Of a DNA stretch of 64,000 nt, positions 8,138 through 39,868 are shown one piece after another. The stretch lies in the IMG/VR virus record IMGVR_UViG_3300042914_003341. One strand, written 5' to 3'. The stretch is from an uncultured virus (IMG/VR IMGVR_UViG_3300042914_003341). Its lineage: Duplodnaviria; Heunggongvirae; Uroviricota; Caudoviricetes. The notes under the pieces are model-generated. The model searched no databases and was not told where the DNA came from. It was given only the letters and a program-made list of their open reading frames with translations. How positions within the stretch are numbered: the stretch's first letter is position 1; every line of letters begins with the position of its first letter. The position numbers and the translations under genes are program-made.

Positions 8138-8369
8138 ACGCAGTCACCAGTAACATGTCAGCAAGATCAGACCACTCACTGATCCGTTTAAACGATAAAG
8201 GTTCGAACCATATGGATCCATGGTGCGCCTGAATAAAAGGAGTGCCATAGAAAGCCAGCTTCAACTCAAGACCAATTGATATCGCATCCATGTCTGCAAA
8301 GCCAGCATCAAATGCCGCAAAACTTTGCAACTCTACCAATCTAGGCAGAACCCGGTCAGAAATTATCAC
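8127..8369 (-). CDS. small protein, ELAD-motif family
   Basis: WSDLADMLL. Confidence 0.6.
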   Translation of the reverse strand: MIISDRVLPRLVELQSFAAFDAGFADMDAISIGLELKLAFYGTPFIQAHHGSIWFEPLSFKRISEWSDLADMLLVTAFDT

Positions 8370-8605
8370 TTGTTTCGCTCTCCTAGCAGGAACATGTCAG
8401 CAAGCTCAATGAACAAAAATACTGCCGGTGGTGGTTTTCTCGTCAGTTTTGAACGCACCCTGTCCCATCTGTAATATGCCGCACGGGATATTTCGTAAAT
8501 CTTAACCGAATCAAACCCAGCAGAGTCAGAGAAATCCATCATGCATGGAAGCATGATTCGACAGTTTATAACATCACTGTAAGCTTTTTTGTAGGGATGG
8601 TGCAT
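8366..8605 (-). CDS. small protein, ELAD-motif family
   Basis: LFIELADMF. Confidence 0.65.
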   Translation of the reverse strand: MHHPYKKAYSDVINCRIMLPCMMDFSDSAGFDSVKIYEISRAAYYRWDRVRSKLTRKPPPAVFLFIELADMFLLGERNK

Positions 8606-9576: not shown

Positions 9577-9848
9577 GATCGTTGGAGGTTATCATGGCCA
9601 TCAAGCGCAGTCAAGAGCATGTCTGAGAGATCAGACATTTCTTCCATGACCCAATAATCATGCCTGTCATATGAGAACCAATTAAACGTGGCCACAGGTA
9701 CACCAAACAACAAACCATACACAATCCATGGCATCATATCACCAAGTGGAATTAGTGTTTCTGGCCTGACAACACTCAACCATCTATAGTTTCCGAACCG
9801 TCGGCGCGCGGGATCTAGGAATGATTCTATCTTTATTAGAGGTCGCAT
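9573..9848 (-). CDS. small protein, ELAD-motif family
   Basis: EMSDLSDMLL. Confidence 0.55.
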   Translation of the reverse strand: MRPLIKIESFLDPARRRFGNYRWLSVVRPETLIPLGDMMPWIVYGLLFGVPVATFNWFSYDRHDYWVMEEMSDLSDMLLTALDGHDNLQRS

Positions 9849-10105
9849 TGAATGATCGCTGGCGCATCGTCCGGACCACGACCGTTCTTTGCGGCAAAAG
9901 CCTGAGATAGATCAAATCCCACAGACAAACCTTTCCTGCTGTCCTCATAGTCATCCGGCCGGTCATCATCAATTCTCATCCATTCCCAGTATTCCTGCTC
10001 TCCTTGCTCAGAGAGCCAATCAAGGAAAGCATCTCTGGTTTTCTGTGATGGAAACCTGAACAACAAATCTTTGTTGTCTAAGACATAGATTGAAGATGAT
10101 GTCAT
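9836..10105 (-). CDS. hypothetical phage protein
   Basis: AFLDWLSEQGEQEYWEW; start 6 nt after -10 box. Confidence 0.7.
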   Translation of the reverse strand: MTSSSIYVLDNKDLLFRFPSQKTRDAFLDWLSEQGEQEYWEWMRIDDDRPDDYEDSRKGLSVGFDLSQAFAAKNGRGPDDAPAIIQCDL

Positions 10106-13157: not shown

Positions 13158-13751
13158 CTAAATTCTGTCTCCGAACCGCTTGGGTTTCGGATTGTGAACA
13201 TAAAGAACCTTTGAGAGCTCTGTCATTCGTTGCAGTTGTTTGTGTTTCAAACCTGCACGTGGTGCCGTTGCTAGGTGATAGCGGCCAAGCGGCGTCATCT
13301 CTGTGATGTCATCCAAGACCAGGAGATGTTTTGGTTTCTCCTGTAGGCTGTCTAGACATTTCCAGATTGCTTCTGGCCGCGAACACTCACGTTTGCTGCA
13401 AGAACCTCCCCACACAGTTGGGGTTGAAAGAGTTTCCCAGTAAGGCGTTGCACCAACTAGTTTGCCTCGCAACCCCGACCTTGTCAAAACATCTACTGTC
13501 ACATCAAAACCCGGATTGTTCCTCCAACTTGAAGACAAGACAATGTTTGCCGCAAAACTAGGATTCTGGTCCAACCATTCATTCAGAAAACCCAGACAGG
13601 TTTGACTGATGAACTTGATTGGATCATTGACGTGGCCAGAGAATTCTTTGGTGAAAGGCGACAAAACCCCATCGACGTCAAGCATCAACAGGGTTTCGCT
13701 CCGGAAGGTGGGTGGAAGTTCGTGTGTGCTGGCTGTTAGGTGTTCAGTCAT
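13158..13751 (-). CDS. HAD-family phosphatase (Swiss Army Knife RNA-repair type)
   Basis: LDVDGVL, IVLSSSWR, LVLDD. Confidence 0.85.
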   Translation of the reverse strand: MTEHLTASTHELPPTFRSETLLMLDVDGVLSPFTKEFSGHVNDPIKFISQTCLGFLNEWLDQNPSFAANIVLSSSWRNNPGFDVTVDVLTRSGLRGKLVGATPYWETLSTPTVWGGSCSKRECSRPEAIWKCLDSLQEKPKHLLVLDDITEMTPLGRYHLATAPRAGLKHKQLQRMTELSKVLYVHNPKPKRFGDRI

Positions 13752-13760
13752 AACAACCAG

Positions 13761-13789
13761 ACACTAGCATCAGTCTTCGACGGTGTCAA
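13761..13789 (-). promoter_or_regulatory. sigma70-type promoter, near-leaderless
   Basis: TTGACA-17-TAGTGT with extended TG; ATG 9 nt downstream. Confidence 0.65.
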
Positions 13790-15401
13790 GGACGCGAGCA
13801 ACAAACAGGTTGATGTTTGTAGCAGGATTGTTCGCGACCGGTGTTGCCGCGACTGTTCCGCCATTGGCAAACTCTGACACAACATCGAAGTACGCATCAG
13901 AGAATCCACCAATGTTCAGAACCTTTCCAGCCTGATCCGGCGCTTGCGTGGTCGAACCAGCCGCAAGATCAATGCAAACAAGTCGTGCGTTGGGAACTTT
14001 CAGAGCCAGCTTGTACTGGTTCCAAACATTGATCAGAGTGCTGGCGCGATATGAACCATTGCACCATGATTCATTGTCACTGATCAATACCAGAGTATCA
14101 ACAGCGACCTTGTCAGCAATCATCTTCCGCACTGCCGCAGCACAGTCAGTTCCACCACCATTTGCACCAATCTTCTGTGCATTGGTCAGGACAGTGTCAC
14201 GAGGCTCCAGCTTCACGCTCTGCGCAGCAGTATCGAAACGATACACCTTGGTCGCCACATTGCCGCGAACAATGCATGCAGCGATCAGTGCCGCCACGTT
14301 GTTGCAAGTGATCTTCGATGAAATCCCCTTCGAGTTGGTGCCGGTGACCGGCAAATTCATTGAGCCAGAAAAGTCAACCGCAACCGCAACCCGACCATTG
14401 ATCGGAGTCATGTTCTTGGTTGCAACCTCCATTGCGTCATGAAGTGCATCACGCACAGCCGCAGGCACATCATCCGATGTGTTCATGTAAGCAGCATAGA
14501 TCTGATAAGGCATTGCACGTGCCTTGCGAACAGCCTCCGGGTCACGGAGCTTCGCTGCGATCTGCTTGGTTGCCTCTGCATCATTGAAAACACCATGACG
14601 AGCCATTGTGTTCAGGTTGATGCGCAGGGCTTGCCACCCCATCTTCCCGGAAAGCTCAACCCGCTCCTTTGTTGAAAGATCCAGAGACTGGAGCATCATG
14701 TAAGGAACGTTCTCCGGAACAACACGCTGATCAGGCTTTCCAGTACGAAACTGGACGAGCTCAAACAGCGGCTTGGGAAGCTGGAACAGATCCACACGGT
14801 CCTCTTGACCAAGGAAATACCGGTACAGTTGGTTCCGGTTCTCATCCTGCGCACGAGGGTGCACGAGCTTCACAACGTCCTTGAGAGACATTCCTCCATC
14901 ATTGTTCCCGCCAACGAAATCCTCCATGATCTGACGATCATTCCGAGCATTGAGCCAGCCCTGGACCAGCTTCTTCGGCGCAGTCCCGAAAGACTTGCGA
15001 CCAGTAACACCAGAGCGCACAACCGCACAGAAGTTCCGGAGCTGCTTCCCGTTGTCAATCACCTTGGGAAATGCACGACGAAACCGACGAGCATCCTTGT
15101 TCATCAGGAATGCTAGAAGAACAACGGGAGTGTCCTTCATGTTGTTCTCGCGGGCATAGACCGCCAGACCCTCAAGGAATCGAGGCGAAACCTCGTTGAC
15201 CAGACGCTGGACGCGCGCAATCTGGTCCTGGCCAGACGTATAGAAACCGTCGTTGAAAGTCCCAGTCAGTGCCAGGTTTGCTAGATCTACCTCTGATTCC
15301 TTGCGATACGCAAGGCCACCAGCACTGTTGCTCGCGTTTGGCACTACCAGAGCAGGCTTGCGAGCAGAATGAGAAGACGAAGAAAATACGGTGTTGTTCA
15401 T
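13770..15401 (-). CDS. rsr: Ro60/Rsr RNA-binding protein (TROVE + vWA)
   Basis: NSAGGLAY, TGTFNDGFY, RSGVTGRKSFG, vWA MIDAS DFSGSM, ISDNESW, IGGFSD. Confidence 0.93.
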   Translation of the reverse strand: MNNTVFSSSSHSARKPALVVPNASNSAGGLAYRKESEVDLANLALTGTFNDGFYTSGQDQIARVQRLVNEVSPRFLEGLAVYARENNMKDTPVVLLAFLMNKDARRFRRAFPKVIDNGKQLRNFCAVVRSGVTGRKSFGTAPKKLVQGWLNARNDRQIMEDFVGGNNDGGMSLKDVVKLVHPRAQDENRNQLYRYFLGQEDRVDLFQLPKPLFELVQFRTGKPDQRVVPENVPYMMLQSLDLSTKERVELSGKMGWQALRINLNTMARHGVFNDAEATKQIAAKLRDPEAVRKARAMPYQIYAAYMNTSDDVPAAVRDALHDAMEVATKNMTPINGRVAVAVDFSGSMNLPVTGTNSKGISSKITCNNVAALIAACIVRGNVATKVYRFDTAAQSVKLEPRDTVLTNAQKIGANGGGTDCAAAVRKMIADKVAVDTLVLISDNESWCNGSYRASTLINVWNQYKLALKVPNARLVCIDLAAGSTTQAPDQAGKVLNIGGFSDAYFDVVSEFANGGTVAATPVANNPATNINLFVARVLDTVED

Positions 15402-22494: not shown

Positions 22495-22718
22495 TTTTGC
22501 AACATGTCCATCAGATCGATGATCCACCAACTATCACCCAGTTGACTATGTTTACCCGCAATCCACTCTGCGTTTGGTTTGCTGAGTGACAAACACAGCC
22601 CACTATACATTCCATTCTCAAATTCAGAAATACCAAGTGCATAGTTGAATTGACTGTCAATCTCACCAATTCTTTGCTGTGAGCTAACAACCACAGCTAG
22701 GGCGAGATAATCATCCAT
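22491..22718 (-). CDS. small protein, ELAD-motif family
   Basis: IIDLMDML; start uncertain. Confidence 0.5.
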   Translation of the reverse strand: MDDYLALAVVVSSQQRIGEIDSQFNYALGISEFENGMYSGLCLSLSKPNAEWIAGKHSQLGDSWWIIDLMDMLQK

Positions 22719-23266
22719 ACTGACTTTGACTCTGGGGCAATCGTCACAGGGTGTTTGAGTTTGTTGTTGCACTTGATCTGCTCAAGCATCCTTTGCAGGA
22801 GGTCAGCACCGCGCTGCATCCCAAGATACACCTCGCGACCTTTGAACTTGCAAACAACCTTGACCTCATGGCCTTCCTCTACGAACTCCTTGACCTTTGA
22901 TGCCTTGACGTTGAGGTCGTTGTCGTCAATGTTCGGCCTGACAATGATCTCTTTTTGTTCCAGAGGCTTCGAACGGCCCTTCTGTGCCTTCTTCTGGTCG
23001 AACAGGAACTTGCCATAGTCAATGATCTTGCAAAGGCTGCGAGGACGTGTCTGACTCGCTGAGTTGATCTCAACCAGATCCAAACCTGCTTCATTCGCCA
23101 TTCCCAGCGCAACTTGCTTCGAGATGTTCTGGTGGTGGTTTCCATCTTGGTCGACAACATCAAGGTATTGCTCCTGGATGTAACCATTGGTTCGATGACT
23201 GCGACCACCAGTGGAAGCCGATGGACGAACTGGAAGGCGAGAACCGTTTGCTGTTTTGTTTCCCAT
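22697..23266 (-). CDS. infC: translation initiation factor IF-3
   Basis: AGLDLVEI, CKIIDYGKFLFDQKK, KEIIVRPNIDDNDL, KVVCKFKGRE. Confidence 0.93.
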   Translation of the reverse strand: MGNKTANGSRLPVRPSASTGGRSHRTNGYIQEQYLDVVDQDGNHHQNISKQVALGMANEAGLDLVEINSASQTRPRSLCKIIDYGKFLFDQKKAQKGRSKPLEQKEIIVRPNIDDNDLNVKASKVKEFVEEGHEVKVVCKFKGREVYLGMQRGADLLQRMLEQIKCNNKLKHPVTIAPESKSVWMIISP

Positions 23267-26462: not shown

Positions 26463-26686
26463 ACTGGTTGAAGCATGTCCCCGATGTCGGCAAGCTCACC
26501 GAGTGTATCATGGCCGCGATAATTCATGAATTCGTTGCCGTTCCGATGCGCGTAGGATGGATTGAAAAATGCAGCACACCTGATCGTGGTAAACATCGCG
26601 AACAGAAAGCGGCACGATAGATTGCGTGCTACGCGCTCAGCAGTGAGTTTGGTGTCTATTTGGCGACAGAAGCCGATTGTCAACAT
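26453..26686 (-). CDS. small protein, ELAD-motif family
   Basis: ELADIGDML; AGGAG upstream. Confidence 0.6.
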   Translation of the reverse strand: MLTIGFCRQIDTKLTAERVARNLSCRFLFAMFTTIRCAAFFNPSYAHRNGNEFMNYRGHDTLGELADIGDMLQPVCQ

Positions 26687-26714
26687 GCTGCTCCTTGTTG
26701 TGTGAATAAACTAT

Positions 26715-26788
26715 TGGATCACAGTGAGGGAGTTGAACCCCCATTCAACGAGTCAAAGTCGTTTGTCCTACCATTGGACGAACTGTGA
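26715..26788 (-). tRNA. tRNA-Gln(TTG)
   Basis: Cloverleaf, loop CTTTGAC, CCA encoded. Confidence 0.9.
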
Positions 26789-26798
26789 ATGGTAACGG

Positions 26799-26875
26799 TG
26801 GTGGGTCTGCTGAGATTTGAACTCAGATTTCACAGATTAAGAGTCTGGTGTAATAAACCGTTATACTACAAACCC
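26799..26875 (-). tRNA. tRNA-Lys(CTT)
   Basis: Loop CTCTTAA, CCA encoded. Confidence 0.9.
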
Positions 26876-26901
26876 AAATATGAACGAAACGAACGAAACA
26901 G

Positions 26902-26973
26902 TAGCCCCAGAAGGAATCGGACCTCCGACCTCCAAGGCGTAAGCTTGGGGTTCTGCCATTGAACTATAGGGCC
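26902..26973 (-). tRNA. tRNA-Val(TAC)
   Basis: Loop CTTACGC; T-loop TCCGATT; no CCA. Confidence 0.8.
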
Positions 26974-26992
26974 AGATGAAGAAAAAAAGGAG

Positions 26993-27189
26993 AGCGGGTC
27001 CAAGGAATTGAACCTTGATAGTCCATCGATGGAGGCAAGAGATTTTGGCCGCGAAACATGATCAGTGCTCGGAACAAAAACTCTTGTAATCAACCATCTA
27101 GCTGAATGCAGATCATTGATCAGATGACCTACACCGGCAGACCCTGCCAGATTGGACTCTGGCGGCATTAGCCAAAATGCGTGACCCGC
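26993..27189 (-). ncRNA. giant tRNA-like RNA (Gly-type acceptor, about 125-nt variable region)
   Basis: GCGGGTC/GACCCGC-T, D arm, GCCAG-AGTCCAAT-CTGGC arm, T arm CAAGG-TTCAATT-CCTTG. Confidence 0.75.
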
Positions 27190-27211
27190 GTGAAAAGAAA
27201 AACAAAGGTAG

Positions 27212-27327
27212 CTGGGACGATCGGAGTCGAACCGATAGAGGGGCCTCGCGGATACCCTGTCAGGTTTCGCCGCAAAACTATTCTTGCAGCTACCGACTGA
27301 CTTCTCTGTCCATTTGAATACATCCCA
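27212..27327 (-). ncRNA. tRNA-like RNA with about 33-nt anticodon loop and long variable arm
   Basis: TGGGATG/CGTCCCA, GTCAG/CTGAC stem, T arm ATCGG-TTCGACT-CCGAT. Confidence 0.7.
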
Positions 27328-27332
27328 GATAG

Positions 27333-27403
27333 AGCGTGTGACGAGACTCGAACTCGTAATCCGAGCTTGGAAGGCAGGGCTTTTACCATTAAATTACACA
27401 CGC
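27333..27403 (-). tRNA. tRNA-Gly(TCC)
   Basis: Loop CTTCCAA, U73; two anticodon-stem mismatches. Confidence 0.8.
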
Positions 27404-27458
27404 AAAGAAACCAAGGCAGTTAAGTCAAAGCTAAGGAAGAAGAAGAAAGAGATTGCTG

Positions 27459-27722
27459 TCAGAAAGTTCTCGTGACACATCCTCGCATGAACCCACAGCA
27501 GGCGTTCATCCGCACCTGACGACCGGCAGGGTTTGTTGCAGCGATGGTAAACTCCGTGTCATACCCCTTCCCGCAGAGATGAACGTAAGAAGTATCAACA
27601 ACCCTGACGTTGGAGAACCCCATGTCCTGGAAATGCTGAACTGCTGTGTCCTGGCTTGAGCAGGCAGTGGTAGCAGTTGAAGACAGAACCAGGAGCGCAA
27701 GAAGGCGTAGAGAGTTTCGCAT
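27459..27722 (-). CDS. small lipoprotein
   Basis: MRNSLRLLALLVLSSTATTA-C signal peptide and lipobox; Cys-rich C-terminus. Confidence 0.75.
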   Translation of the reverse strand: MRNSLRLLALLVLSSTATTACSSQDTAVQHFQDMGFSNVRVVDTSYVHLCGKGYDTEFTIAATNPAGRQVRMNACCGFMRGCVTRTF

Positions 27723-27760
27723 CGCTTTATATACCTTTCGTGAATGTTGTTGACCGACAG

Positions 27761-27846
27761 TAGGGCTGGAGGGATTTGCACCCCCAGTTGCGGTTTTGCC
27801 GCGTCCGATTTTGAGCCGGAAGTGTCTGCTGTTCCACCACAACCCC
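27761..27846 (-). tRNA. tRNA-Leu(CAA)
   Basis: Loop CTCAAAA, long variable arm. Confidence 0.88.
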
Positions 27847-27861
27847 AAACTTAACCAAACA

Positions 27862-28024
27862 TGGAGCGTGCCGCAGGAGTTGAACCCGCACAGGGAGGCC
27901 ACCCCTGTCTCTTGCCAGTGTTTCGATGGGCGAAACACCTCTGACCATCTTTGACTGAGAGAGTCATAGCTCTTTGGAGGGCGACTCCAGCTATTGGTAC
28001 TTCTCAGTCAGCAAGATAGCACGC
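27862..28024 (-). ncRNA. giant tRNA-like RNA (Gly-type acceptor, about 70-nt D arm)
   Basis: GCGTGCT/GGCACGC-T-CCA, T arm GCGGG-TTCAACT-CCTGC, long hairpin TGACTGAGA/TCTCAGTCA. Confidence 0.75.
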
Positions 28025-28060
28025 ATATTTTCTATCTCACGTTGCCTTGGAGACACTCAG

Positions 28061-28089
28061 ACTCTAGCACGAGGCTTCAAGGCTGTCAA
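28061..28089 (-). promoter_or_regulatory. sigma70-type promoter (RNA island)
   Basis: TTGACA-17-TAGAGT with extended TG. Confidence 0.7.
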
Positions 28090-28097
28090 GTGCAACG

Positions 28098-28352
28098 TCA
28101 AAGCTCTGAGTTCGCTGGCGCAATAATATCGCACAACTCGGTCAGGAACATGAGACGCTGCGGCCAATCATGGCTTGGCTCAGAAAACGAAGGATAAACT
28201 CTTTTAAGGAGGTGTGCATTGTGGCGGTCGGCGCTGCCAAAGCAATAATCAATCATGTCGGAAAGAAATGTCTCATTCAAAGGTATGGACGCCGCACCAA
28301 TTCGCTGGCCCAATTTCATGATCGAATCTTGACGTGCAGTGATGCAATCCAT
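28098..28352 (-). CDS. small protein, ELAD-motif family
   Basis: FLTELCDII; AGGAG upstream. Confidence 0.65.
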   Translation of the reverse strand: MDCITARQDSIMKLGQRIGAASIPLNETFLSDMIDYCFGSADRHNAHLLKRVYPSFSEPSHDWPQRLMFLTELCDIIAPANSEL

Positions 28353-28390
28353 TTGATTCTCCTTCTATATGATTGTTAGGTCATCAACAG

Positions 28391-28490
28391 TGGGTCGCCT
28401 AGGAATTGAACCTAGTTGCCTTCGACGGGCGGTGCGTTTCCAAGAAACTTCGTTTTGCAGCGCACTGTTCAGCCATTGAACCTCCGACCC
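28391..28490 (-). ncRNA. tRNA-like RNA with 24-nt anticodon loop (begins CT-GCA-A) and long variable arm
   Basis: GTGCG/CGCAC stem, D arm GTTCA/TGAAC, T arm CTAGG-TTCAATT-CCTAG. Confidence 0.7.
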
Positions 28491-28509
28491 CAAACAAGAA
28501 GAAACATAG

Positions 28510-28581
28510 TGGAGAATAGCGGTTATGCTCCGCTCATCCCTGTGTGCAAGACAGGAGTTTTCCTGAATAAACTAATTCCCC
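28510..28581 (-). tRNA. tRNA-Ala(TGC)
   Basis: G3:U70, loop CTTGCAC, atypical T-loop AGCATAA. Confidence 0.8.
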
Positions 28582-28625
28582 AAACACAAACTACAAGGCA
28601 TGAAGGTTCTGCGGCAAAAACAAGT

Positions 28626-28736
28626 TGGCTGCACCGCTGAGATTTATCTTCTATTCCCCCAGATCTGCCGGTTGACCCCCGGTTATCTTACTACGTCATC
28701 GAGATGGTCGCGAGTTGATGTTTAGACGACAGTGCT
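28626..28736 (-). ncRNA. degenerate Asp-like tRNA-like RNA with enlarged D and T loops
   Basis: GCACTG/CGGTGC, G73-CCA, CCGG-GGGTCAA-CCGG. Confidence 0.5.
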
Positions 28737-28738
28737 AG

Positions 28739-28810
28739 CGCCTCCAGGGAGAATTGAACTCCCGTCTGGTGATCGACAATCACCGGTCCTATCCACTGAA
28801 CGATAGAGGC
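28739..28810 (-). tRNA. tRNA-Asp(GTC)
   Basis: Loop TTGTCGA, G73. Confidence 0.88.
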
Positions 28811-28831
28811 TAAGAAACAATAAGGCAAAGT

Positions 28832-28919
28832 TGGGAGTTTGCGAGGAATCGAACCTCTTGAGGTAGCTAACCACACCCGGTGTGCCCGAGCCGCAGATAT
28901 CCTTTCTGCCAACAAACTC
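28832..28919 (-). ncRNA. atypical tRNA-like RNA (8-bp acceptor, 4-bp T stem)
   Basis: GAGTTTGT/GCAAACTC-CCA, GAGG-TTCGATT-CCTC, 5-bp D stem; anticodon ambiguous. Confidence 0.65.
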
Positions 28920-28932
28920 ATGATATCATCAG

Positions 28933-29005
28933 CACCGCTACTAGGAATCGAACCTAGATGCAACTGTTTAGAAGACAGAGCCCTTATCCATTAGGGGATA
29001 GCGGC
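28933..29005 (-). tRNA. tRNA-Arg(TCT)
   Basis: Loop CTTCTAA. Confidence 0.88.
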
Positions 29006-29018
29006 AAAACAACAAGGG

Positions 29019-29085
29019 GCAGCGACAACATTGGTACGTCCAGGGGTTTACAGTTAAAGATGTATCCTAGACATTCATTCGCTGC
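29019..29085 (-). ncRNA. Y RNA-like stem-loop 1
   Basis: GCAGCGAATG...TACATC...TTGTCGCTGC. Confidence 0.7.
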
Positions 29086-29106
29086 ATGAAAAAGGAGAGG
29101 CTTGTT

Positions 29107-29182
29107 TGGTTGGCACACCTGGAATTGAACCAGGGACAACCAGCTTATCAAGCTGGGATTCTAACCGCTGAACTATGTGCCA
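29107..29182 (-). tRNA. tRNA-Ile(GAT)
   Basis: Loop TTGATAA, CCA encoded. Confidence 0.92.
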
Positions 29183-29192
29183 GTAAGAAGGC

Positions 29193-29268
29193 TATGACGA
29201 CAACGCAAGGCATTTCCTGTAGAGCGTGCATATTTTCAAGATGTATTCTACAAGGATCATTCGTCATA
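29193..29268 (-). ncRNA. Y RNA-like stem-loop 2
   Basis: TATGACGAATG...TACATC...TTGTCGTCATA. Confidence 0.75.
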
Positions 29269-29275
29269 CAGAAAC

Positions 29276-29366
29276 TATAGAGACAAAAGTTAGGTCTGGT
29301 GGGTTGGGATCGGGTTTATTAGACCCGATTTTTAGTCAATGTAACCAGATTCCTGCATTCTCTATG
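29276..29366 (-). ncRNA. Y RNA-like stem-loop 3
   Basis: ATAGAGAATG...TACATT...TTGTCTCTAT. Confidence 0.6.
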
Positions 29367-29369
29367 TGA

Positions 29370-29444
29370 GGCTCCACCCGTAGGATTCGAACCTACATTC
29401 CAAATGTTAACAGCATTTTTTTCTACCGGTTGAAATAGAGTGGA
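29370..29444 (-). tRNA. tRNA-Asn(GTT)
   Basis: Loop CTGTTAA, G73. Confidence 0.88.
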
Positions 29445-29449
29445 AAACT

Positions 29450-29514
29450 GTGACGACAAACAAGTTCTATAGAAGCTTACAATTTCGAATGTATTCTACA
29501 GATTCATTCGTCAC
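29450..29514 (-). ncRNA. Y RNA-like stem-loop 4
   Basis: GTGACGAATG...TACATT...TTGTCGTCAC. Confidence 0.75.
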
Positions 29515-29568
29515 GTGATACTTGATGAGATGCTCTTCTTCTTTTCTTCTTCGCTCCTGACACCTTAG

Positions 29569-29597
29569 AGACTATCAGAGGCTGGGAAGGTTGTCAA
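29569..29597 (-). promoter_or_regulatory. sigma70-type promoter (RNA island)
   Basis: TTGACA-17-TAGTCT, one mismatch from the Ro60 promoter. Confidence 0.75.
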
Positions 29598-29615
29598 GTG
29601 CAGCGTCAAGGCAGT

Positions 29616-29708
29616 TGGCAGAAGGTGCAGGATTTGAACCTGCGGGGGCATGATTAGTGCCCCGGAAGTTTAGCAAACTTCTGTGTTAGACCACTCCACC
29701 AACCTTCT
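29616..29708 (-). tRNA. tRNA-Ser(GCT)
   Basis: Loop TTGCTAA, long variable arm, G73-CCA. Confidence 0.92.
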
Positions 29709-29720
29709 ATGAAGGAAACT

Positions 29721-29798
29721 TGCGGCGACAACTAGAAGGCAACCATGGTGTTGTTTATTCTGTATGATGGATGTAAACACCTTGGTACATTCGCCGCG
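29721..29798 (-). ncRNA. Y RNA-like stem-loop 5
   Basis: GCGGCGAATG...TACATC...TTGTCGCCGC. Confidence 0.75.
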
Positions 29799-29831
29799 AA
29801 AACCTAAATCACATTCAAACTATTATCTTAG

Positions 29832-29929
29832 CCCCAGAGCCTAGGTTCGAACTAGGATTGTCTGGCTTCATGCCAGTCGTAATACCTCACAGCTTTCGCC
29901 TTGTGTTGCACTGTTTATACTACCCCAGG
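29832..29929 (-). ncRNA. tRNA-like RNA with hairpin inserted in D loop
   Basis: T arm CCTAG-TTCGAAC-CTAGG; anticodon arm CTGGC-ATGAA-GCCAG. Confidence 0.65.
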
Positions 29930-29938
29930 AAATTAGTT

Positions 29939-30017
29939 CCAGCAACCCAATCGGAATGCCACCGATGTCTCGCATGATTTTGCGCGTCCTTAAGCTCCCT
30001 AGACGATGGTTTGCTGG
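29939..30017 (-). ncRNA. tRNA-like RNA with extended acceptor stem and short anticodon arm
   Basis: CCAGCAA/TTGCTGG; CGCA-AAATCA-TGCG; ATCGG-TGGCATT-CCGAT. Confidence 0.55.
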
Positions 30018-30090
30018 TGGTGTTGCCTCATGGATTTGCACCATGATTCTTACGGATGCCTCCGCGCTTCACTAATCAAAGCTTGACAAC
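30018..30090 (-). ncRNA. tRNA-like RNA with 4-nt anticodon loop
   Basis: GTTGTC/GGCAAC-A-CCA; GCGGA-GGCA-TCCGT; CATGG-TGCAAAT-CCATG. Confidence 0.65.
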
Positions 30091-30107
30091 CTGGCTTGCG
30101 GCCATTG

Positions 30108-30211
30108 TGTACAGTACCAGACTCGAACTGATCTCTCAGGCTTTCATGCCTGTGTTTTTACCATTCAGCTTCGTGCTAGCCCTAGTCACTGAACTTGAAA
30201 ACTAACTGCAC
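30108..30211 (-). ncRNA. tRNA-like RNA with hairpin inserted in D loop (paralogue of 29832..29929)
   Basis: GTGCAGT/ACTGTAC; CAGGC-ATGAAA-GCCTG; ATCAG-TTCGAGT-CTGGT. Confidence 0.7.
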
Positions 30212-30257
30212 AAGTGATGATGATTGGTGCACTGACAAAGGATAGCAACTGATGTTT

Positions 30258-30473
30258 TTATCTCCAAATGATGTAATCAGGTGCTGCATTCAGTGCGTTA
30301 GACTTTGGCAATGTCTGAACCGGTTTGCCATCCGGAGATATGAAACACACTGTGATCAGACTCAGTGATCCCCGACACCACAAACACCCATTGTTTTGGA
30401 TTGGGAAGGCAAGAAGAGAGACAACTAGTTCCGGAACTGATGTTGGTATCTGAAATGATGTAATCAGTTCCAT
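30258..30473 (-). CDS. hypothetical protein
   Basis: 71-aa ORF between RNA genes. Confidence 0.4.
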   Translation of the reverse strand: MELITSFQIPTSVPELVVSLLAFPIQNNGCLWCRGSLSLITVCFISPDGKPVQTLPKSNALNAAPDYIIWR

Positions 30474-30487
30474 TCATTCTCTCTATA

Positions 30488-30564
30488 TGGTGCGTGGAGT
30501 TGGGTTCGAACCAACGACCTTATCCTTAAAAGGGATTTGCTGCTACCAACTGAGCTATCCACGC
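30488..30564 (-). tRNA. tRNA-Lys(TTT)
   Basis: Loop CTTTTAA, CCA encoded. Confidence 0.92.
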
Positions 30565-30624
30565 GGCCCCGGTTTCCTATAACATCATCCCAGCCAGTAT
30601 ACCAGAAACAGCGCTGGGTGACGA

Positions 30625-30701
30625 CACTTTTATCTCATCCTCCCGATTCGAACGGGCTTTATCCGGCTTGCGGCCGAACCTGTGACCAACACAGTAAGTG
30701 C
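30625..30701 (-). ncRNA. tRNA-like or pseudo-tRNA (GCA loop), acceptor stem disrupted
   Basis: CTGTG-TTGGT-CACAG; TTCGG-CCGCAAG-CCGGA; CCCG-TTCGAAT-CGGG. Confidence 0.5.
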
Positions 30702-30728
30702 TAAAGGACTTGAAACTTCGTGCAAGTT

Positions 30729-30823
30729 TGGAGCCGCCTTCTGCTTTCGAAGCAGCATTTCACCCTTGGTCCCCAGTATAGCTAAACTTGGGGGAGTGCG
30801 TTCTACCTTTGAACTACGACGGC
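30729..30823 (-). ncRNA. tRNA-like RNA with elongated anticodon arm
   Basis: GCCGTC/GGCGGC-T-CCA, canonical D arm, CACTC/GGGTG extended by CCCCA/TGGGG. Confidence 0.7.
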
Positions 30824-30877
30824 AATACAGCACACATTCCAGAGGTTGCTTAAACGCAACTTGTATGGTGCTGTTAG

Positions 30878-30948
30878 TCAGGGAACCTAGGCTCGAACTA
30901 GGGACTCACCGATCCAAACGGTGAACGTTACCACTACGCCATTCCCTG
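30878..30948 (-). tRNA. tRNA-Pro(TGG)
   Basis: Loop TTTGGAT, C1-G72, A73. Confidence 0.88.
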
Positions 30949-30997
30949 AAAACTAAGGTAAGATAAGATATTATCGAGGCTTGCGAGGCATGATCAG

Positions 30998-31026
30998 AAT
31001 CTAGCATGAGGCAGAAGGCTTGTCAA
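30998..31026 (-). promoter_or_regulatory. sigma70-type promoter (RNA island)
   Basis: TTGACA-17-TAGATT with extended TG. Confidence 0.7.
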
Positions 31027-31052
31027 GTGGAGCGTCAAGAGGCGGGGTAAGT

Positions 31053-31155
31053 GATGATTGTTTCGGTGAGATTTGCACTCACAACACAGGCTTTCGCTCT
31101 AGGGATGGTGGCACCAACTTGCCTTCTCTGTTTGGACTTGCGAAACACAATCATC
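31053..31155 (-). ncRNA. structured RNA with T arm and long terminal stem
   Basis: GATGAT..TGTTTCG/CGAAACA-ATCATC; GTGAG-TGCAAAT-CTCAC. Confidence 0.55.
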
Positions 31156-31157
31156 GG

Positions 31158-31298
31158 TGGGATCAGAAGGAGTTGCACCTTCATCTGTGATTTGCGTTTT
31201 ACCGTTAAACTATCCTAAAACCACCATGACAGTAGGTACTAGGAGGCGTTTCGAAACGCCAACTCGGTTGCACACTCTACTAGTTGAGTTATGATCCC
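31158..31298 (-). ncRNA. double-bodied tRNA-like RNA (permuted T-acceptor-D module in place of the anticodon loop)
   Basis: Outer GGGATCA/TGATCCC with D and T arms; inner GGCGT-TTCGAA-ACGCC, TCCTA/TAGGA, GTTT-AACGGTA-AAAC. Confidence 0.7.
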
Positions 31299-31488
31299 TA
31301 ATGCCTTCTGCCTAATAAGCAGAAGGGCTTTTCTCCAGGCAACTACCATAGAATGGTCCATGGGCTGTCCGGAATTGTTTTTTTGATCAGTTCTGATATG
31401 CCAGCCAATTCATCGGATCAAGCATACCACCCAACCGATCACGGGGAACACACGCAAAGGATTTTGTTAAACCATGCATTGTGTGTTC

Positions 31489-31564
31489 GGTAGCCCTGGT
31501 GAGAATTGAACTCGACATCGACGGAGTGAAGGTCCATCATCCTAAGCCATTAGAAGACAGGGCC
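31489..31564 (-). tRNA. tRNA-Glu(TTC)
   Basis: Loop CCTTCAC (C33), bulged T stem. Confidence 0.8.
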
Positions 31565-31622
31565 GAACAAGAAACAACATGTTGTCAGAGAACAGTCAGA
31601 AGAACTAAGTCTTCTTTGTGCT

Positions 31623-31697
31623 TGGTCGCGGCATCGGGAATCGCACCCGAAACTAGAGGGTATGAACCTCTCGTGATAACTGTTTCACTATACCGCA
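31623..31697 (-). tRNA. tRNA-Met(CAT), possibly initiator-like
   Basis: Loop TTCATAC, U1:G72, CCA encoded. Confidence 0.85.
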
Positions 31698-31837
31698 ATC
31701 TAGAAGGCTGTAACAAAATAAGTATGTGAGTCCTATGATAATTCCGTCACACTTCGATGTCTAACGTTACTGTTTGTTTCCAAGGCTATTACAAGATAGG
31801 CTTGATAGCTCTTGTGTTGCTCTGCGGCGATGAGGTA

Positions 31838-36128: not shown

Positions 36129-36866
36129 CTAGCCATACACAGGATCAAACACGCACACTGAGCCATCGGATGGTCTGATTCCGATATTATCTCTTGATAT
36201 ATCCAGAGCAGCACGTAGGTCGACGGGGTGGCGTGCTTGTGTTACCTCTGTGAGAACTTCAACAAAACGATCAAAGTCTTGTTCAGTCCAATGCAATAGT
36301 TCCAGATCTTGTTGTTTGATCATCTCACCATACACGCGTCGCATGACCCCGCCATTTATCGCGCCAATTGAATCTACCCCACGTCGGACATTGTCTAGAT
36401 TAGATAAACCAACCTTTGTGATCGTGTCCACATACTCCAGCACACACATCGTCACTGTTTCATTGACCAGTTTTATGTCTGTGTTCAAGTAATAAACATC
36501 AGGCAGTGCCGCACTATAGCTCCTGCCGCCAAGCTTCTTGCACAGCTTCAGATATTTCCAAGACATATCAGAGTCTTGGTATTTCTTGCTGAGTTTGATG
36601 ACACACTCAACTTGGCTAGCACCATCAAAGTTGATGTAAGCTTTCGCAAAGGATCCGCTGTATTCTTTGGTGTTAGCTTCAACCATCTGAAGCGCTTCCT
36701 CAAGCGCAGTACGATCGACATCGGACAATTTAACTGTTGTTGATCGATCAGGAGTTGGCAGAAAACCAGCATCTATCATATTCAAGATATTCATTGCCAT
36801 GTCCTTTTTTTCTGCGAAAAGGAGTTTTTGCAACGAAACAGCATTTATGTTGCTAGCTGTTTTCAT
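36129..36866 (-). CDS. protein kinase-like, paralogue 1
   Basis: SGSFAKA, CVIK, LPDVY, DISRDNIG, VFDP. Confidence 0.75.
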   Translation of the reverse strand: MKTASNINAVSLQKLLFAEKKDMAMNILNMIDAGFLPTPDRSTTVKLSDVDRTALEEALQMVEANTKEYSGSFAKAYINFDGASQVECVIKLSKKYQDSDMSWKYLKLCKKLGGRSYSAALPDVYYLNTDIKLVNETVTMCVLEYVDTITKVGLSNLDNVRRGVDSIGAINGGVMRRVYGEMIKQQDLELLHWTEQDFDRFVEVLTEVTQARHPVDLRAALDISRDNIGIRPSDGSVCVFDPVYG

Positions 36867-37594
36867 CAGAAGTTATAGCTCAGTGGATCGAACACGCACA
36901 GAGAACCATCCTCTCGAAAACCAAAGTTTCCCGCGTGGACGTCAATGGAACCTCCGACATCTCTCAAAGATTGAATGAATTTTGCGAGATCAGTAGAATC
37001 CCACTTGTACACAGCCAGTTTTTGTTCGATAGAATCTCTTTGAGGTTTCTTCAAACCATAAACTTCTCCGCGCATGTTCAAATCAATGATCTGTTTGTAG
37101 CTAGATTCTGCAAAACTATCGAGTAAGCTGTCTAGAAACGTTTCATGCCGTGAACTAGTCTCCACATTCACAAACTCAATCACGGCGATTTCCACCTTTT
37201 CATTATCTTTCAGGTGAGCCGTGCCCATCCAGTAAACATCTGGGAATGCGGCGCAGTAGTTCCTGCCGCCATGATCCATGCAATACTTCAAGTATTTCAT
37301 TCCTTGATCGATGTTTGGATCTGCAATCTGGACCTTGATCACGCACTCTACTGGGCCACTCCCAAAGTCAATCAGTGCAGCACTAAAGGCGCCACGTTTC
37401 TCCTTGAGGCGCAGGCTGTTTGCTGCGAAGCTTAGATTCTCAATGAAATCGTCAACTTCCATTTTTGAGATCTGTTGAAGACCATCTTCTCGTGGCGTAG
37501 GCAGCGCACCAAGTTCAATCATCCGGATCAAGTCCATGGCTTGCTTCTTCTTCTCGTTCAGGTATAATACGTCTTTGAGTTTCATCATCGTCAT
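36866..37594 (-). CDS. protein kinase-like, paralogue 2
   Basis: RGAFSAA, CVIK, FPDVY, DVHAGNFG, VFDP. Confidence 0.8.
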   Translation of the reverse strand: MTMMKLKDVLYLNEKKKQAMDLIRMIELGALPTPREDGLQQISKMEVDDFIENLSFAANSLRLKEKRGAFSAALIDFGSGPVECVIKVQIADPNIDQGMKYLKYCMDHGGRNYCAAFPDVYWMGTAHLKDNEKVEIAVIEFVNVETSSRHETFLDSLLDSFAESSYKQIIDLNMRGEVYGLKKPQRDSIEQKLAVYKWDSTDLAKFIQSLRDVGGSIDVHAGNFGFREDGSLCVFDPLSYNF

Positions 37595-37599
37595 GACAT

Positions 37600-38349
37600 T
37601 CAGAAATCTTTCATTCCAAGCGGATCAAACACACAGAGCGAGCCATCAGATCTCCAGCCGGAGTTTGTTCCTTCGCTCAAGTCAAACAGCTCAACACCAT
37701 CAGTCAGTTCTAGAATAACTGTTGAAAACTTCACTAAGTCTTCGTAAGACCAATGCCATGTTTGCAACGCCTCCTGCACCACAGGGTCAGAACTAATGTT
37801 GGTTTTTGTTTTGATCGCTGCGAAAGCCTTCTCCAGAACACGCTCCAACCCTCTGCCGGTGTGTCTGTCTCTGGTCACAGCAACAAACTCCATCACACAA
37901 ACTGGGAGTTGAGTATTGTTTGCGAGCTCAAGCGTGTTGAGATAGTAGATGTCCGGGAATGGAGTGCAAGAGCTCCTGCCGCCGAGCTCTTGCACCATTG
38001 CAGCGTAATTCCAGAAGTAGTCGTTCTTCCACGTTCTGTGTTTTGGAAATTCCACTCCCATATCGTTGAATGGATATCCAAACTTGATCACTGTCTCCAA
38101 ACTCCCAGCCCCAAGATCAACCATGGCTGTCGAGAAATAACCGCCAAAACCTTTGATCGTGTCTAAACCTGTCAGAGTGGTGAACAGCCTGTGGAAATCT
38201 TCTAGTGAGAGATACTTCAACTCAACTCTCTGGCCGTTCTTTGTCGTGAGATAACCGGCTTCTAACTGAGCCAGGATGCTCATTGCTTGTTCTTTTCTCT
38301 CACGGAACAGGATCGATGACAGCGTTGCATGCATGGTCTTTGAACTCAC
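37600..38349 (-). CDS. protein kinase-like, paralogue 3
   Basis: GGYFSTA, TVIK, FPDIY, DLSEGTNSG, VFDP. Confidence 0.75.
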   Translation of the reverse strand: MSSKTMHATLSSILFRERKEQAMSILAQLEAGYLTTKNGQRVELKYLSLEDFHRLFTTLTGLDTIKGFGGYFSTAMVDLGAGSLETVIKFGYPFNDMGVEFPKHRTWKNDYFWNYAAMVQELGGRSSCTPFPDIYYLNTLELANNTQLPVCVMEFVAVTRDRHTGRGLERVLEKAFAAIKTKTNISSDPVVQEALQTWHWSYEDLVKFSTVILELTDGVELFDLSEGTNSGWRSDGSLCVFDPLGMKDF

Positions 38350-39074
38350 TGACTTAGCGGATCAAACACACAGACAGTGTTGTCGCTTCTCAAGCCCAGA
38401 TTGTCTCGTTTGATATCGGTAGAACCACCAACCACACCCAACGACATTACAAACCTAGCTAGATCTTGAACAGTCCAGCCAAGTATTGCTAGTAAGTGTT
38501 GCCTTTCATTCGCAGTCGACTCAATTGCCTTGAGTTCTGCTGCGACCTGATGCGCATCGTTCCAGTCCAAACCCCATCGATCGTACGTGGCAGCTAACAA
38601 AGTGTTGATCTTCGAAGACAGAACACTGCCTTGAGAATTCTTGAGGACATTGACAAACTCAATCACTGCAATATCAACATCTCTGTCTCGCGTCTTCACA
38701 TTGCCAAGGTAATAAACGTCTGGGAAAGCAGCACAATAGCTCCTGCCACCTTTCTCTTTGCAGTAGGTGAGATAGTCAAAGGCTTTGTCGCCTTCATACT
38801 CGCCAATCCCAACTTTGATCACACATTCCACAGGACCATTCCCAAAGTCAATCATGGCAGTAGAGAAGGCGCCTGAGTATTTTTCCAGGCTAGTTGTTTT
38901 TGCGGCTCTACCAAGAAGATACAGAAACTCTTCCGAGTGAATATCCTCGATTCGCCTCATCTCGTTTGGATTTGCAACGCTTGGCAAAACTCCAAGCTCG
39001 ATCATCTTCATCAGGTTCATTGCGCGGTCTTTGCGCTCAGAGAGGAACAAGAGATCGGAAAGTTTTAGTCTCAT
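38346..39074 (-). CDS. protein kinase-like, paralogue 4
   Basis: SGAFSTA, CVIK, FPDVY, DIKRDNLG, VFDP. Confidence 0.78.
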   Translation of the reverse strand: MRLKLSDLLFLSERKDRAMNLMKMIELGVLPSVANPNEMRRIEDIHSEEFLYLLGRAAKTTSLEKYSGAFSTAMIDFGNGPVECVIKVGIGEYEGDKAFDYLTYCKEKGGRSYCAAFPDVYYLGNVKTRDRDVDIAVIEFVNVLKNSQGSVLSSKINTLLAATYDRWGLDWNDAHQVAAELKAIESTANERQHLLAILGWTVQDLARFVMSLGVVGGSTDIKRDNLGLRSDNTVCVFDPLSQ

Positions 39075-39100
39075 GTTGTTAGTGAAGGTAACTACGACTC

Positions 39101-39868
39101 TTAGACCGCTGACAAATATTTGTTCGGGATCGAACCATACACAATCACAGTGTCATAGTCAATCCCGGAATCCGAGATCTCATGGTCCAAATCAACACCA
39201 AGCATGCTGGATATCGCGCCAATTAATTGGTGCTCTAGGATTTCTGGTTCTTCCGACACAAATGGCATGTAGTTGTCACGTTTCATTGCTAGTGTATCAA
39301 TCTTCACTATGTCTCCATAACTCTGCGCAATTTCATCGTTGGATGTAGTGAACACAGCGTCACCAACATGTTTGTTGTTCAAACCGCGTGTTTCACTCCG
39401 CGGCTCAATGCCCGTTGCAAGGACAGAATCAATATCACTGCTGCCATGATAAAGAATCGGCGGGGAAGACCAGAACTCTTGGTTGAATTTGAGCTCATGG
39501 TCTTCTTCGAAGAACGAGTGCAAGTCATCGTGCATCGTGATGTTGCTAATGAATTCTTCAGGTCTTTCACCATCTTGAACCATGCCATTTGCAATGTCAT
39601 GCACAAGAGTCTTGCGCGCACTTGCTGTTACATAAACTTTCTTGCTGGGAGTGAAAACAACTTTGCGAAAAGAAAACACACCCGGGTTTAGACGTGCTTG
39701 TTCTCTGGCTAGCCGCAAAAACTCGACCTCTTGCAGCTCTAGCTCATCGCTCAAAGCGTAGTACAATGGCCATTTTGTGCTGGTTTCGGCAGAACTGCCA
39801 GCAATTCCATCCATCGGCAAATTCAACTGCTGAGAGTTTTCAAACAATAAAGTTGCAAGATCGATCAT
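39101..39868 (-). CDS. ADP-ribosyltransferase/KptA(Tpt1)-fold protein
   Basis: LYHGS..I...GIEPR, AVFTT, AQSYG, SIPNKYL. Confidence 0.6.
   Translation of the reverse strand: MIDLATLLFENSQQLNLPMDGIAGSSAETSTKWPLYYALSDELELQEVEFLRLAREQARLNPGVFSFRKVVFTPSKKVYVTASARKTLVHDIANGMVQDGERPEEFISNITMHDDLHSFFEEDHELKFNQEFWSSPPILYHGSSDIDSVLATGIEPRSETRGLNNKHVGDAVFTTSNDEIAQSYGDIVKIDTLAMKRDNYMPFVSEEPEILEHQLIGAISSMLGVDLDHEISDSGIDYDTVIVYGSIPNKYLSAV

Follow-up and report, generated by a model that had tools for sequence, protein, structure and literature searches.

Architecture of element A and of its relative

The stretch of DNA analysed here (the window) comprises 64,000 nucleotides (nt) of an uncultured virus (IMG/VR IMGVR_UViG_3300042914_003341), a large phage distantly related to Myxococcus phage Mx1 in which all long open reading frames (ORFs) lie on the minus strand. 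On that strand it carries a cluster of 15 tRNA genes, 14 of them called by ARAGORN between 26715 and 31697 and a tRNA-Glu at 31491-31564 added by Rfam, and within this cluster lies the subject of this report, element A (31158-31298), preceded by a non-coding leader and followed directly by a further RNA, RNA B. An initial annotation had described element A as a tRNA in which a second, circularly permuted tRNA takes the place of the anticodon loop. Every sequence string listed there is found at 31158-31298 on the minus strand, and the two-bodied architecture is confirmed: there are two tRNA-like bodies, of which the inner follows the order T arm, closed acceptor and D arm, neither has an anticodon, and all six helices are kept at 61% identity in a relative on another metagenome contig, L005. 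The parts of element A are listed below; R1 is a covariance model for which the window sequence, with the proposed structure, was the only input.

31158-31298, minus: element A, whole, 141 nt from G1 of the outer acceptor to the discriminator A, with CC next at 31157-31156 (from the sequence, the R1 self-match and the pair counts)
31292-31298, minus: outer acceptor 5′ strand GGGAUCA, whose partner is UGAUCCC at 31159-31165 (7/7 pairs in the window)
31274-31289, minus: D1 arm, ACUC-AACUAGUA-GAGU, beginning two bases (UA) past the acceptor strand
31261-31273, minus: linker c5, GUGCAACCGAGUU, 13 nt from D1 to T1, without conserved pairing
31245-31260, minus: inner T-like arm T1, GGCGU-UUCGAA-ACGCC
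31213-31244, minus: closed acceptor-like hairpin AS, UCCUAG/UUAGGA with 3+3 inner pairs, abutting T1 with zero gap
31196-31210, minus: D2 arm, GUUU-AACGGUA-AAAC, preceded by UA (31211-31212) and aligned as a D arm by the Rfam tRNA model
31183-31195, minus: linker c3, GCAAAUCACAGAU, 13 nt from D2 to T2
31166-31182, minus: outer T arm T2, GAAGG-UGCAACU-CCUUC, directly adjoining the outer acceptor 3′ strand
31159-31165, minus: outer acceptor 3′ strand UGAUCCC, followed by the discriminator A (31158) and CC

The outer body has the frame of a tRNA, with a 7-base-pair (bp) acceptor stem, a D arm two bases further on, an abutting T arm and a discriminator base. A frame descriptor scores 7/7 acceptor pairs, 5/5 T-stem pairs and a D stem of 4 bp in element A, and 6/7, 5/5 and 4 bp in L005. 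In both sequences the T stems abut the acceptor strands and two bases lead from the acceptor 5′ strand to the D stem, and the base preceding each T arm can make a Levitt-type pair with D-loop position 15 (A-U three times, G-C in the outer body of L005). Element A shares its A-CC-G end with the tRNA-Glu of the same cluster, and no ORF of at least 60 amino acids (aa) overlapping it was found. Within AS, the helix UCCUAG...UUAGGA encloses a 20-nt segment that holds 3+3 further pairs and the apical loop GUCAU; the closed helix is present as annotated (TCCTA/TAGGA) and is one pair longer than was stated. T1 in the window is a perfect 16-nt palindrome, for which an alternative of 6 bp with a 4-nt loop is possible.

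The 5-bp anticodon stem and 7-nt anticodon loop of a cloverleaf are absent from element A and, by our own reading, neither such a stem nor a 7-nt loop with U33 fits the window or the L005 version, whether the outer or the permuted arrangement is read. ARAGORN calls no tRNA at element A, with introns disallowed or allowed (0-120 nt). The Rfam tRNA model (RF00005) matches the 3′ 58 nt only, with the anticodon arm deleted, at a sub-threshold 24.5 bits (cut-off 29). The proposed fold has an energy of -39.8 kcal/mol, compared with -42.7 for the minimum free energy (MFE) structure, which retains five of the six helices and has a z-score of -2.62 relative to shuffles.

L005, a 10,872-bp metagenome contig, was found by a scan with the neighbouring phosphoesterase; its sequence runs collinear with that of the window (82-91% identical), and it holds the sole full relative of element A from the metagenome contig scan. 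R1 detects this relative over its full length (39.2 bits, E 2.8e-07) in 147,685 bases searched, the next match being a tRNA at 20.9 bits. The relative and the identities of the segments compared between tRNA-Glu and tRNA-Pro are as follows.

L005, whole relative: 7210-7354
L005, outer acceptor and D1: GGGACAA, CU, AAGA-GGUACA-UCUU, then 7 nt
L005, inner body: GGUG(U)G-UGCAAAU-CCACC; CUGGCG...UUGCU-GUCAU-GGCAA...CGUUGG; UA; GUUU-AAUAGUA-AAAC; 22 nt
L005, 3′ part: GAAGG-CGCGACU-CCUUC, UAGUCCC, A, CC
Element A, window versus L005: 99/161 columns, 61%
Leader: 182/195 columns, 93%
RNA B: 94/101 columns, 93%
Promoter region: 95/109 columns, 87%

The changes between the two elements are largely compensatory. 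In the alignment fitted to the model, standard pairs occupy 71 of the 74 cells, and 12 of the 37 pairs are changed on both sides (one in the outer acceptor, three in D1, one in T1 and seven in the closed stem). None of 500 shuffles reaches the observed pair values, and when the 3′ partners are slid by 1-3 columns, 44-54% of cells pair with 0-3 double changes. On this alignment RNAalifold independently arrives at the six helices (33 pairs, 11 compensatory). The outer acceptor of L005 (GGGACAA/UAGUCCC) has one double-changed pair and one A.A mismatch, and in D1 three of four pairs are double-changed and all still pair. The single double change counted in T1 becomes two if the extra U is taken as a bulge. 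Seven of the 12 pairs of the AS closed stem are double-changed and two are changed on one side, 95.8% of cells pairing, and its apical sequence CUGUCAUGG is identical in the two elements. The stems of D2 (loop AAUAGUA in L005) and T2 (loop CGCGACU) are invariant; being unchanged they are uninformative for covariation, and both match the tRNA consensus.

The linkers behave otherwise: c5 has 13 nt in the window versus 7 nt in L005, and c3 has 13 nt versus 22 nt. The connecting helix, which had been flagged as uncertain from the outset, has no counterpart common to the two sequences, so that these do not define how the two bodies are placed relative to each other. Candidates can be drawn in each (UGUG/CACA, or GUG/CGC with ACCG/CGGU, in the window; CAGAU/AUCUG in L005), and none is shared.

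A strict descriptor of the whole architecture, composed after element A had been seen, has one match in the real window, at element A, and two in 105 dinucleotide shuffles of the window, both strands searched, or about 0.02 per window; because this figure is modest and post hoc, the weight of the argument rests on the comparison with the relative. Contigs from two other public runs span 31121-31271 and 31217-31367 with zero differences. A mis-join of two tRNAs, the outcome that was to have told against the two-bodied RNA, is unlikely because these contigs are identical across the junctions and an independent metagenome contig shares the architecture. A further run, X9, contains an L005-like variant in which the first 30 nt of the element are readable. 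The public runs containing the stretch carry lake water metagenome labels; small run shares were not used for habitat or expression claims.

Searches for additional relatives covered several collections. Neither megablast nor blastn against 50,697 phage records matched element A, and IMG/VR scans with five DNA patterns and the phosphoesterase protein gave no match. A scan of IMG/VR with a 1196-aa protein returned one contig at 66% identity, which contains no tRNA genes and no match to element A; it is 47 kb long and 13% complete according to CheckV, from which we calculate a genome of ~360 kb for that relative. Of the genome contig scans, one gave nothing and another five chance 18-mer matches, none of the five being matched by R2, a covariance model built from the window and L005 sequences. 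Over five Ro60 phage genomes (1,257,825 bases) the best R2 score was 25.8 bits, and the six alignments read contained no two-bodied RNA; they are tandem tRNAs or elements of the order T arm, closed stem, D arm.

Origin and readings of element A

Element A can be divided into two 62-nt units, each running from an acceptor 5′ strand (7 nt) over a 2-nt step to the D arm, then through 13 nt of linker to the T arm, the acceptor 3′ strand (7 nt) and A, with CC after the A in both (UCCUAGU-A-CC inside, UGAUCCC-A-CC at the end). By our own count, the acceptor strands pair poorly within their own unit (3/7 and 2/7 in the window, 4/7 and 4/7 in L005) and well crosswise (7/7 and 6/7 in the window, 6/7 and 7/7 in L005). 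We infer that the gene arose from a tandem tRNA-like pair whose acceptor strands now pair crosswise only, an origin that the initial annotation had raised and that these units fit. A tandem duplicate would first have permitted crosswise pairing; the acceptor helices would since have diverged, so that the crosswise nested fold alone remains. The linkers would occupy the former sites of the anticodon arms. The 22-nt linker of L005 has the exact length of N26, an anticodon arm and a variable loop, with no stem. The 3′ half scores as a partial tRNA in L005 too (16.9 bits, 24.5 in the window). A donor tRNA was sought for the four arms and no convincing match was obtained.

We consider it probable that element A is a real gene for a tRNA-derived, non-decoding RNA of ~141-144 nt with two tRNA-like bodies, the outer one processed and the inner one in YrlA-like order. 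The outer body (open 7-bp acceptor, D1, T2) would supply the ends and the shape recognised by tRNA-processing enzymes, having the features required by RNase P and by the CCA-adding enzyme, and the inner body (T1, hairpin-closed acceptor, D2) would occupy the place of the anticodon arm. A promoter-like site at 31763-31735 may drive the transcription of element A jointly with that of tRNA-Met and tRNA-Glu. RNase P would then generate the 5′ end, and the 3′ A-CC, left by removal of B or by trimming, would be completed to CCA; freeing B would leave A ending in ACC because the closing stem of B starts with the very next base after A-CC. On this model the outer body could serve as a natural 'tRNA scaffold' for processing and stability, with the inner body as its cargo. 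Having no anticodon, the RNA cannot decode. It could act as a bivalent tRNA mimic whose two elbows and two acceptor-like helices occupy or bridge proteins that bind the elbow or acceptor of tRNA. As to the partner we can offer a guess, either the Ro60 and RNA-repair set of the phage itself or tRNA-targeting factors of the host; the Ro60 and RNA-repair genes of the window, together with the synteny with Mx1 described below, point toward the former.

More tentatively, element A may belong to a class of phage RNAs not described so far: double tRNA mimics, single-chain and domain-swapped, that derive from a tandem tRNA pair and in which both anticodon arms have been lost, one acceptor is open (CCA possible) and one sealed, and two elbows are presented at once. 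In a full-text literature search we did not find described a natural RNA in which one complete tRNA 'upper half' is enclosed by another. If such a class exists, a domain-swapped mimic could bridge or trap two proteins that bind tRNA, such as a defence enzyme of the host that targets tRNA, or the phage Ro60 and repair enzymes, and element A would be a living intermediate for the rise of YrlA-type Y RNA heads from tandem tRNAs.

Several observations weigh against a processed, two-bodied RNA of this kind. The comparison involves two distinct full sequences only, and the alignment behind the pair counts was itself fitted to the model. The fold common to both has -26.8 kcal/mol in L005 (-36.5 with extra pairs), compared with -45.3 for the MFE structure, which is a different fold; the T1 of L005 requires a bulge, its acceptor stem has the A.A mismatch, and its outer D loop is without an equivalent of G18 G19. 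The T1 loop of the window has 6 nt, with U53-A61. The linkers differ in length (13/13 versus 7/22 nt), with no common connector helix. High divergence is no distinguishing mark of element A, because the tRNA genes for Lys (59%) and Asn (66%) diverge equally. An RNA-library contig (run X21) covers 30969-31173, taking in RNA B and just ~16 nt at the end of A; it cannot show transcription and may stem from carried-over DNA. In addition, Rfam YrlA gives no match at E<=10, the GNCGAA motif is absent from element A, and the Ro60 gene lies ~15.8 kb away.

Chen et al. (PMC4201824) define YrlA by a 5′ GNCGAAN0-1G motif in the closing stem, a domain of T arm, closed stem and D arm, and a gene at most 4 kb from that of Ro60; they associate the motif with Ro60 binding and warn that tandem tRNAs can mimic the YrlA pattern. 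The T, closed-acceptor, D order that the initial annotation had equated with the YrlA tRNA-mimic topology is indeed shown by the inner module: a strict search for the module finds element A at 31260-31196, and the module is kept in L005. The proposed covariance search with YrlA models came back empty. Rfam YrlA (RF02553, gathering cut-off 69 bits, which element A does not reach) has no match at E<=10 in 30950-31620 or 26500-31800 or at E<=5 in the whole window, and none in L005. The GNCGAA motif is absent from the 141 nt of element A, whose sole CGAA sits in the T1 loop, and the Ro60 gene lies ~15.8 kb away on the same strand (31158 versus 15401), well beyond 4 kb. By motif, Rfam score and distance, element A is therefore not a YrlA as Rfam and Chen et al. 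define it.

It is nevertheless conceivable, and in our view unlikely, that element A is a true Y RNA partnering the phage Ro60, in which a tRNA-like frame has replaced the Ro60-binding stem, the RNA tethering Ro60 to tRNA-binding or RNA-degrading or RNA-repair enzymes. The Ro60 homologue and two further genes of the window, all three part of the context of our preferred reading, are these:

13770-15401, minus: Ro60 homologue (vWA_Ro60 1.2e-19, TROVE 8.4e-08; PHROGs/Pfam)
13158-13751, minus: HAD domain of 'Swiss Army Knife' RNA-repair proteins (HAD_SAK_2), beside the Ro60 homologue
795-1697, minus: Thg1-like protein

The NCBIfam Rsr match to the Ro60 homologue (99 bits) is far under its cut-off of 900, and the best phage match of the protein is in Myxococcus phage Mx1 (40% identity). 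A Y RNA would fit the presence of this homologue on the same strand, the finding of no other YrlA candidate in the window, and the fact that Mx1 and Streptomyces phage Limpid keep YrlA-like RNAs in tRNA clusters near their Ro genes. In Mx1 (OR576727.2) an unannotated YrlA-like RNA at 8249-8377, with GCCGAAUGC, matches the full Rfam model at a sub-threshold 32 bits; it lies in a tRNA cluster, ~240 nt downstream of a tRNA-Glu that matches the tRNA-Glu of the window. R1 and R2 cross-match the elements of the order T arm, closed stem, D arm in Mx1 and Limpid. R1 aligns T1, the closed stem and D2 to the Mx1 RNA at 18.4 bits (E 0.022 over all loci, 5.7e-05 in a local search), a match that we read as likeness of the module, not homology, because plain tRNAs score about equally. 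What argues against a Y RNA, besides the absent motif (as defined in PMC4201824), the lack of any RF02553 match at E<=10 and the distance to the Ro60 gene, is that the 5′/3′ stem of element A is an ordinary 7-bp acceptor stem.

In Limpid, two RNAs of the order T arm, closed stem, D arm (417-523 and 1501-1621) lie among tRNA genes upstream of the Ro gene. The first scores 37.8 bits with Rfam YrlA, and UUUCAUG occurs in both closed-stem loops. The UCAUG common to the closed-stem loops of element A and the two Limpid elements is likely due to chance, since it is absent from Myrna and Cashline. The tRNA cluster of Mx1 also contains an unannotated tmRNA at 9726-10103 (117.7 bits), overlapping a coding sequence labelled 'Hef-like endonuclease'.

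A functionless, decaying remnant of two tandem tRNA genes, at most a processing signal between the neighbouring RNAs, would account for the loss of both anticodon arms, for the unconserved linkers and for the partial tRNA scores of the 3′ half, and it would suit a cluster in which tRNA genes are swapped or diverge freely. Between window (26715-31697) and L005 (6813-10336), the tRNA genes are 100% (Met), 99% (Glu and Ala), 83% (Ile), 80% (Pro), 78% (Ser), 66% (Asn) and 59% (Lys-UUU) identical, with spacers at ~90% and whole stems swapped for compensating sequences; the tRNA genes of this phage group are undergoing exchange or fast evolution, and element A behaves in the same way. We nonetheless regard a remnant as quite improbable: the 12 double-changed pairs still pair, the acceptor strands have co-evolved into a crosswise pairing that is beyond either unit by itself, the apical CUGUCAUGG is identical in otherwise 61%-identical sequences, and a single tRNA-like unit would suffice as a processing signal.

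It is very improbable that element A encodes a decoding tRNA interrupted by a large intron, or a permuted or split precursor that yields a normal tRNA after processing. Its acceptor stem, D arm, T arm and A-CC end do make a good tRNA frame, and another long gene of the cluster is read by ARAGORN as tRNA-Phe, with an intron of 26 nt; yet the program makes no call at element A with introns of 0-120 nt, neither sequence allows a 5-bp anticodon stem or a 7-nt loop with U33, and a group I intron would need a far longer insert. An origin by chance or by faulty assembly is already largely refuted. In its favour, the descriptor is expected ~0.02 times per window and the windows scanned were many; against it stand the shared architecture of an independent contig, the agreement of contigs from other runs over the junctions, the position of the element within a tRNA cluster and the compensatory changes in its helices.

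A tRNA-derived gene with two bodies remains our preferred reading. If the RNA is made and stable, phages would be using a tRNA frame to carry other RNA modules, much in the manner of engineers; a route from tandem tRNAs to YrlA's rotated tRNA domain would be at hand; and the phage-host contest over tRNAs in defence might include a bivalent decoy or bridge.

The surrounding tRNA cluster and phage genome

Two promoter-like sites flank the unit that contains element A (31763-31735 and 31026-30998), the first preceding tRNA-Met, tRNA-Glu, the leader, A and B. The leader (31299-31490, minus) comprises 190 nt of non-coding sequence between tRNA-Glu and A with several hairpins, one of which (31304-31326) scores as a terminator on the plus strand. 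Its first bases in L005 read GCCGAAUG, the YrlA motif, and those in the window ACCGAACA. The L005 sequence was considered as a Ro60 site and rejected: the window does not keep it, and the differences are wobble-compatible hairpin changes.

RNA B (31053-31155, minus, 103 nt) begins directly after the A-CC end of A. Its closing stem has 7+5 bp; a T-like hairpin (GUGAG-UGCAAAU-CUCAC) abuts the 3′ strand, and the RNA also contains a hairpin GGCA-AGUUGG-UGCC and an internal AGCGAAAG. At 93% identity with L005 it shows one compensatory pair (U-A to C-G). RNA B could itself be a Y-RNA-like or tRNA-like RNA. Downstream of B, runs X9 and X21 carry a 24-nt insertion at 31028 that duplicates a promoter-like sequence containing TTGAC.

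A loose descriptor (acceptor, D arm and T arm with any middle), of which strong matches within the cluster were considered, returned at least seven further long or odd tRNA-framed genes of 69-159 nt. Most of these are missed by standard tRNA finders, and two have the same ends in L005. An odd 100-nt tRNA match at 28391-28490 is also given by Rfam. The genes are:

30733-30823, minus: 91 nt
28392-28490, minus: 99 nt
27213-27327, minus: 115 nt
27866-28024, minus: 159 nt
30109-30211, minus: 103 nt
29833-29929, minus: 97 nt
30022-30090, minus: 69 nt

The 69-nt gene (30022-30090) has a 4-nt 'anticodon' loop and an encoded CCA, and the sequence that ARAGORN with introns reads as tRNA-Phe with a 26-nt intron is 27211-27327. 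T loops that start with UGC (G at position 55) occur in tRNA-Met (31626-31697), tRNA-Leu (27761-27846) and the 69-nt element, where they co-occur with D loops that have AG or CAG, not GG. This unusual type of elbow thus recurs in the phage: the UGC/AG combination is also seen in element A's outer body in the window and in its inner body in L005, whereas the outer body of L005 departs from the rule.

Elsewhere in the window, proteins with recognisable domains include IF3, a carbamoyltransferase and an R2K ATP-grasp protein, most others having no match in PHROGs or Pfam.

22697-23266, minus: IF3
36129-39868, minus: a row of five ORFs (242-255 aa) that match no family; ORFs one and two are paralogues (34% identity, E 6e-35)

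Comparison with known systems

Look-alikes of tRNA are known in Y RNAs, tmRNA and the ends of viral RNAs. The circularly permuted tRNA genes of the red alga Cyanidioschyzon merolae place the 3′ half first, followed by a linker and the 5′ half, and give decoding tRNAs after circularisation; the gene order resembles that of the inner module, whereas element A allows no anticodon stem-loop.

A phage precedent for tandem small RNAs in a tRNA cluster is provided by T4 rnaC (139 nt) and rnaD (119 nt; NC_000866 70908-71171), which may be set beside A and B (141 and 103 nt), and rnaC shares with element A a canonical T arm near the 3′ end. Their predicted folds, unlike that of element A, contain no second D or T arm and no nested permuted module, and R1 found no match in the T4 locus, so that the likeness does not extend to the architecture. 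Both are small stable RNAs (species 1 and 2) whose function, to our knowledge, is still unknown.

The closest resemblance of the inner body is to YrlA. The two share a T arm, a hairpin-closed acceptor-like stem, UA and a D arm, as well as A15/U48-type positions and a UUCGA T loop, and the phage that carries element A also encodes a Ro60 gene on the same strand. Element A differs in having no Ro60-binding stem, in mounting the module on a second tRNA body (D1, T2, open acceptor) and in a closed stem of ~12 pairs. For the outer body, a counterpart is Yrn1 of Deinococcus radiodurans, a Y RNA which, as described by Chen et al. (PMC4201824) and compared by that description only, has the normal order of arms and a 5′/3′ stem in place of the acceptor stem; it has a single tRNA-like part, an anticodon-like arm and a Ro60 site, in which it is unlike element A. 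The arrangement as a whole has a parallel in the engineered E. coli tRNA scaffolds (PMC3753655), in which a cargo RNA replaces the anticodon arm and is processed and stabilised as a tRNA. Those scaffolds are a laboratory design, whereas element A is natural and its cargo is itself tRNA-like.

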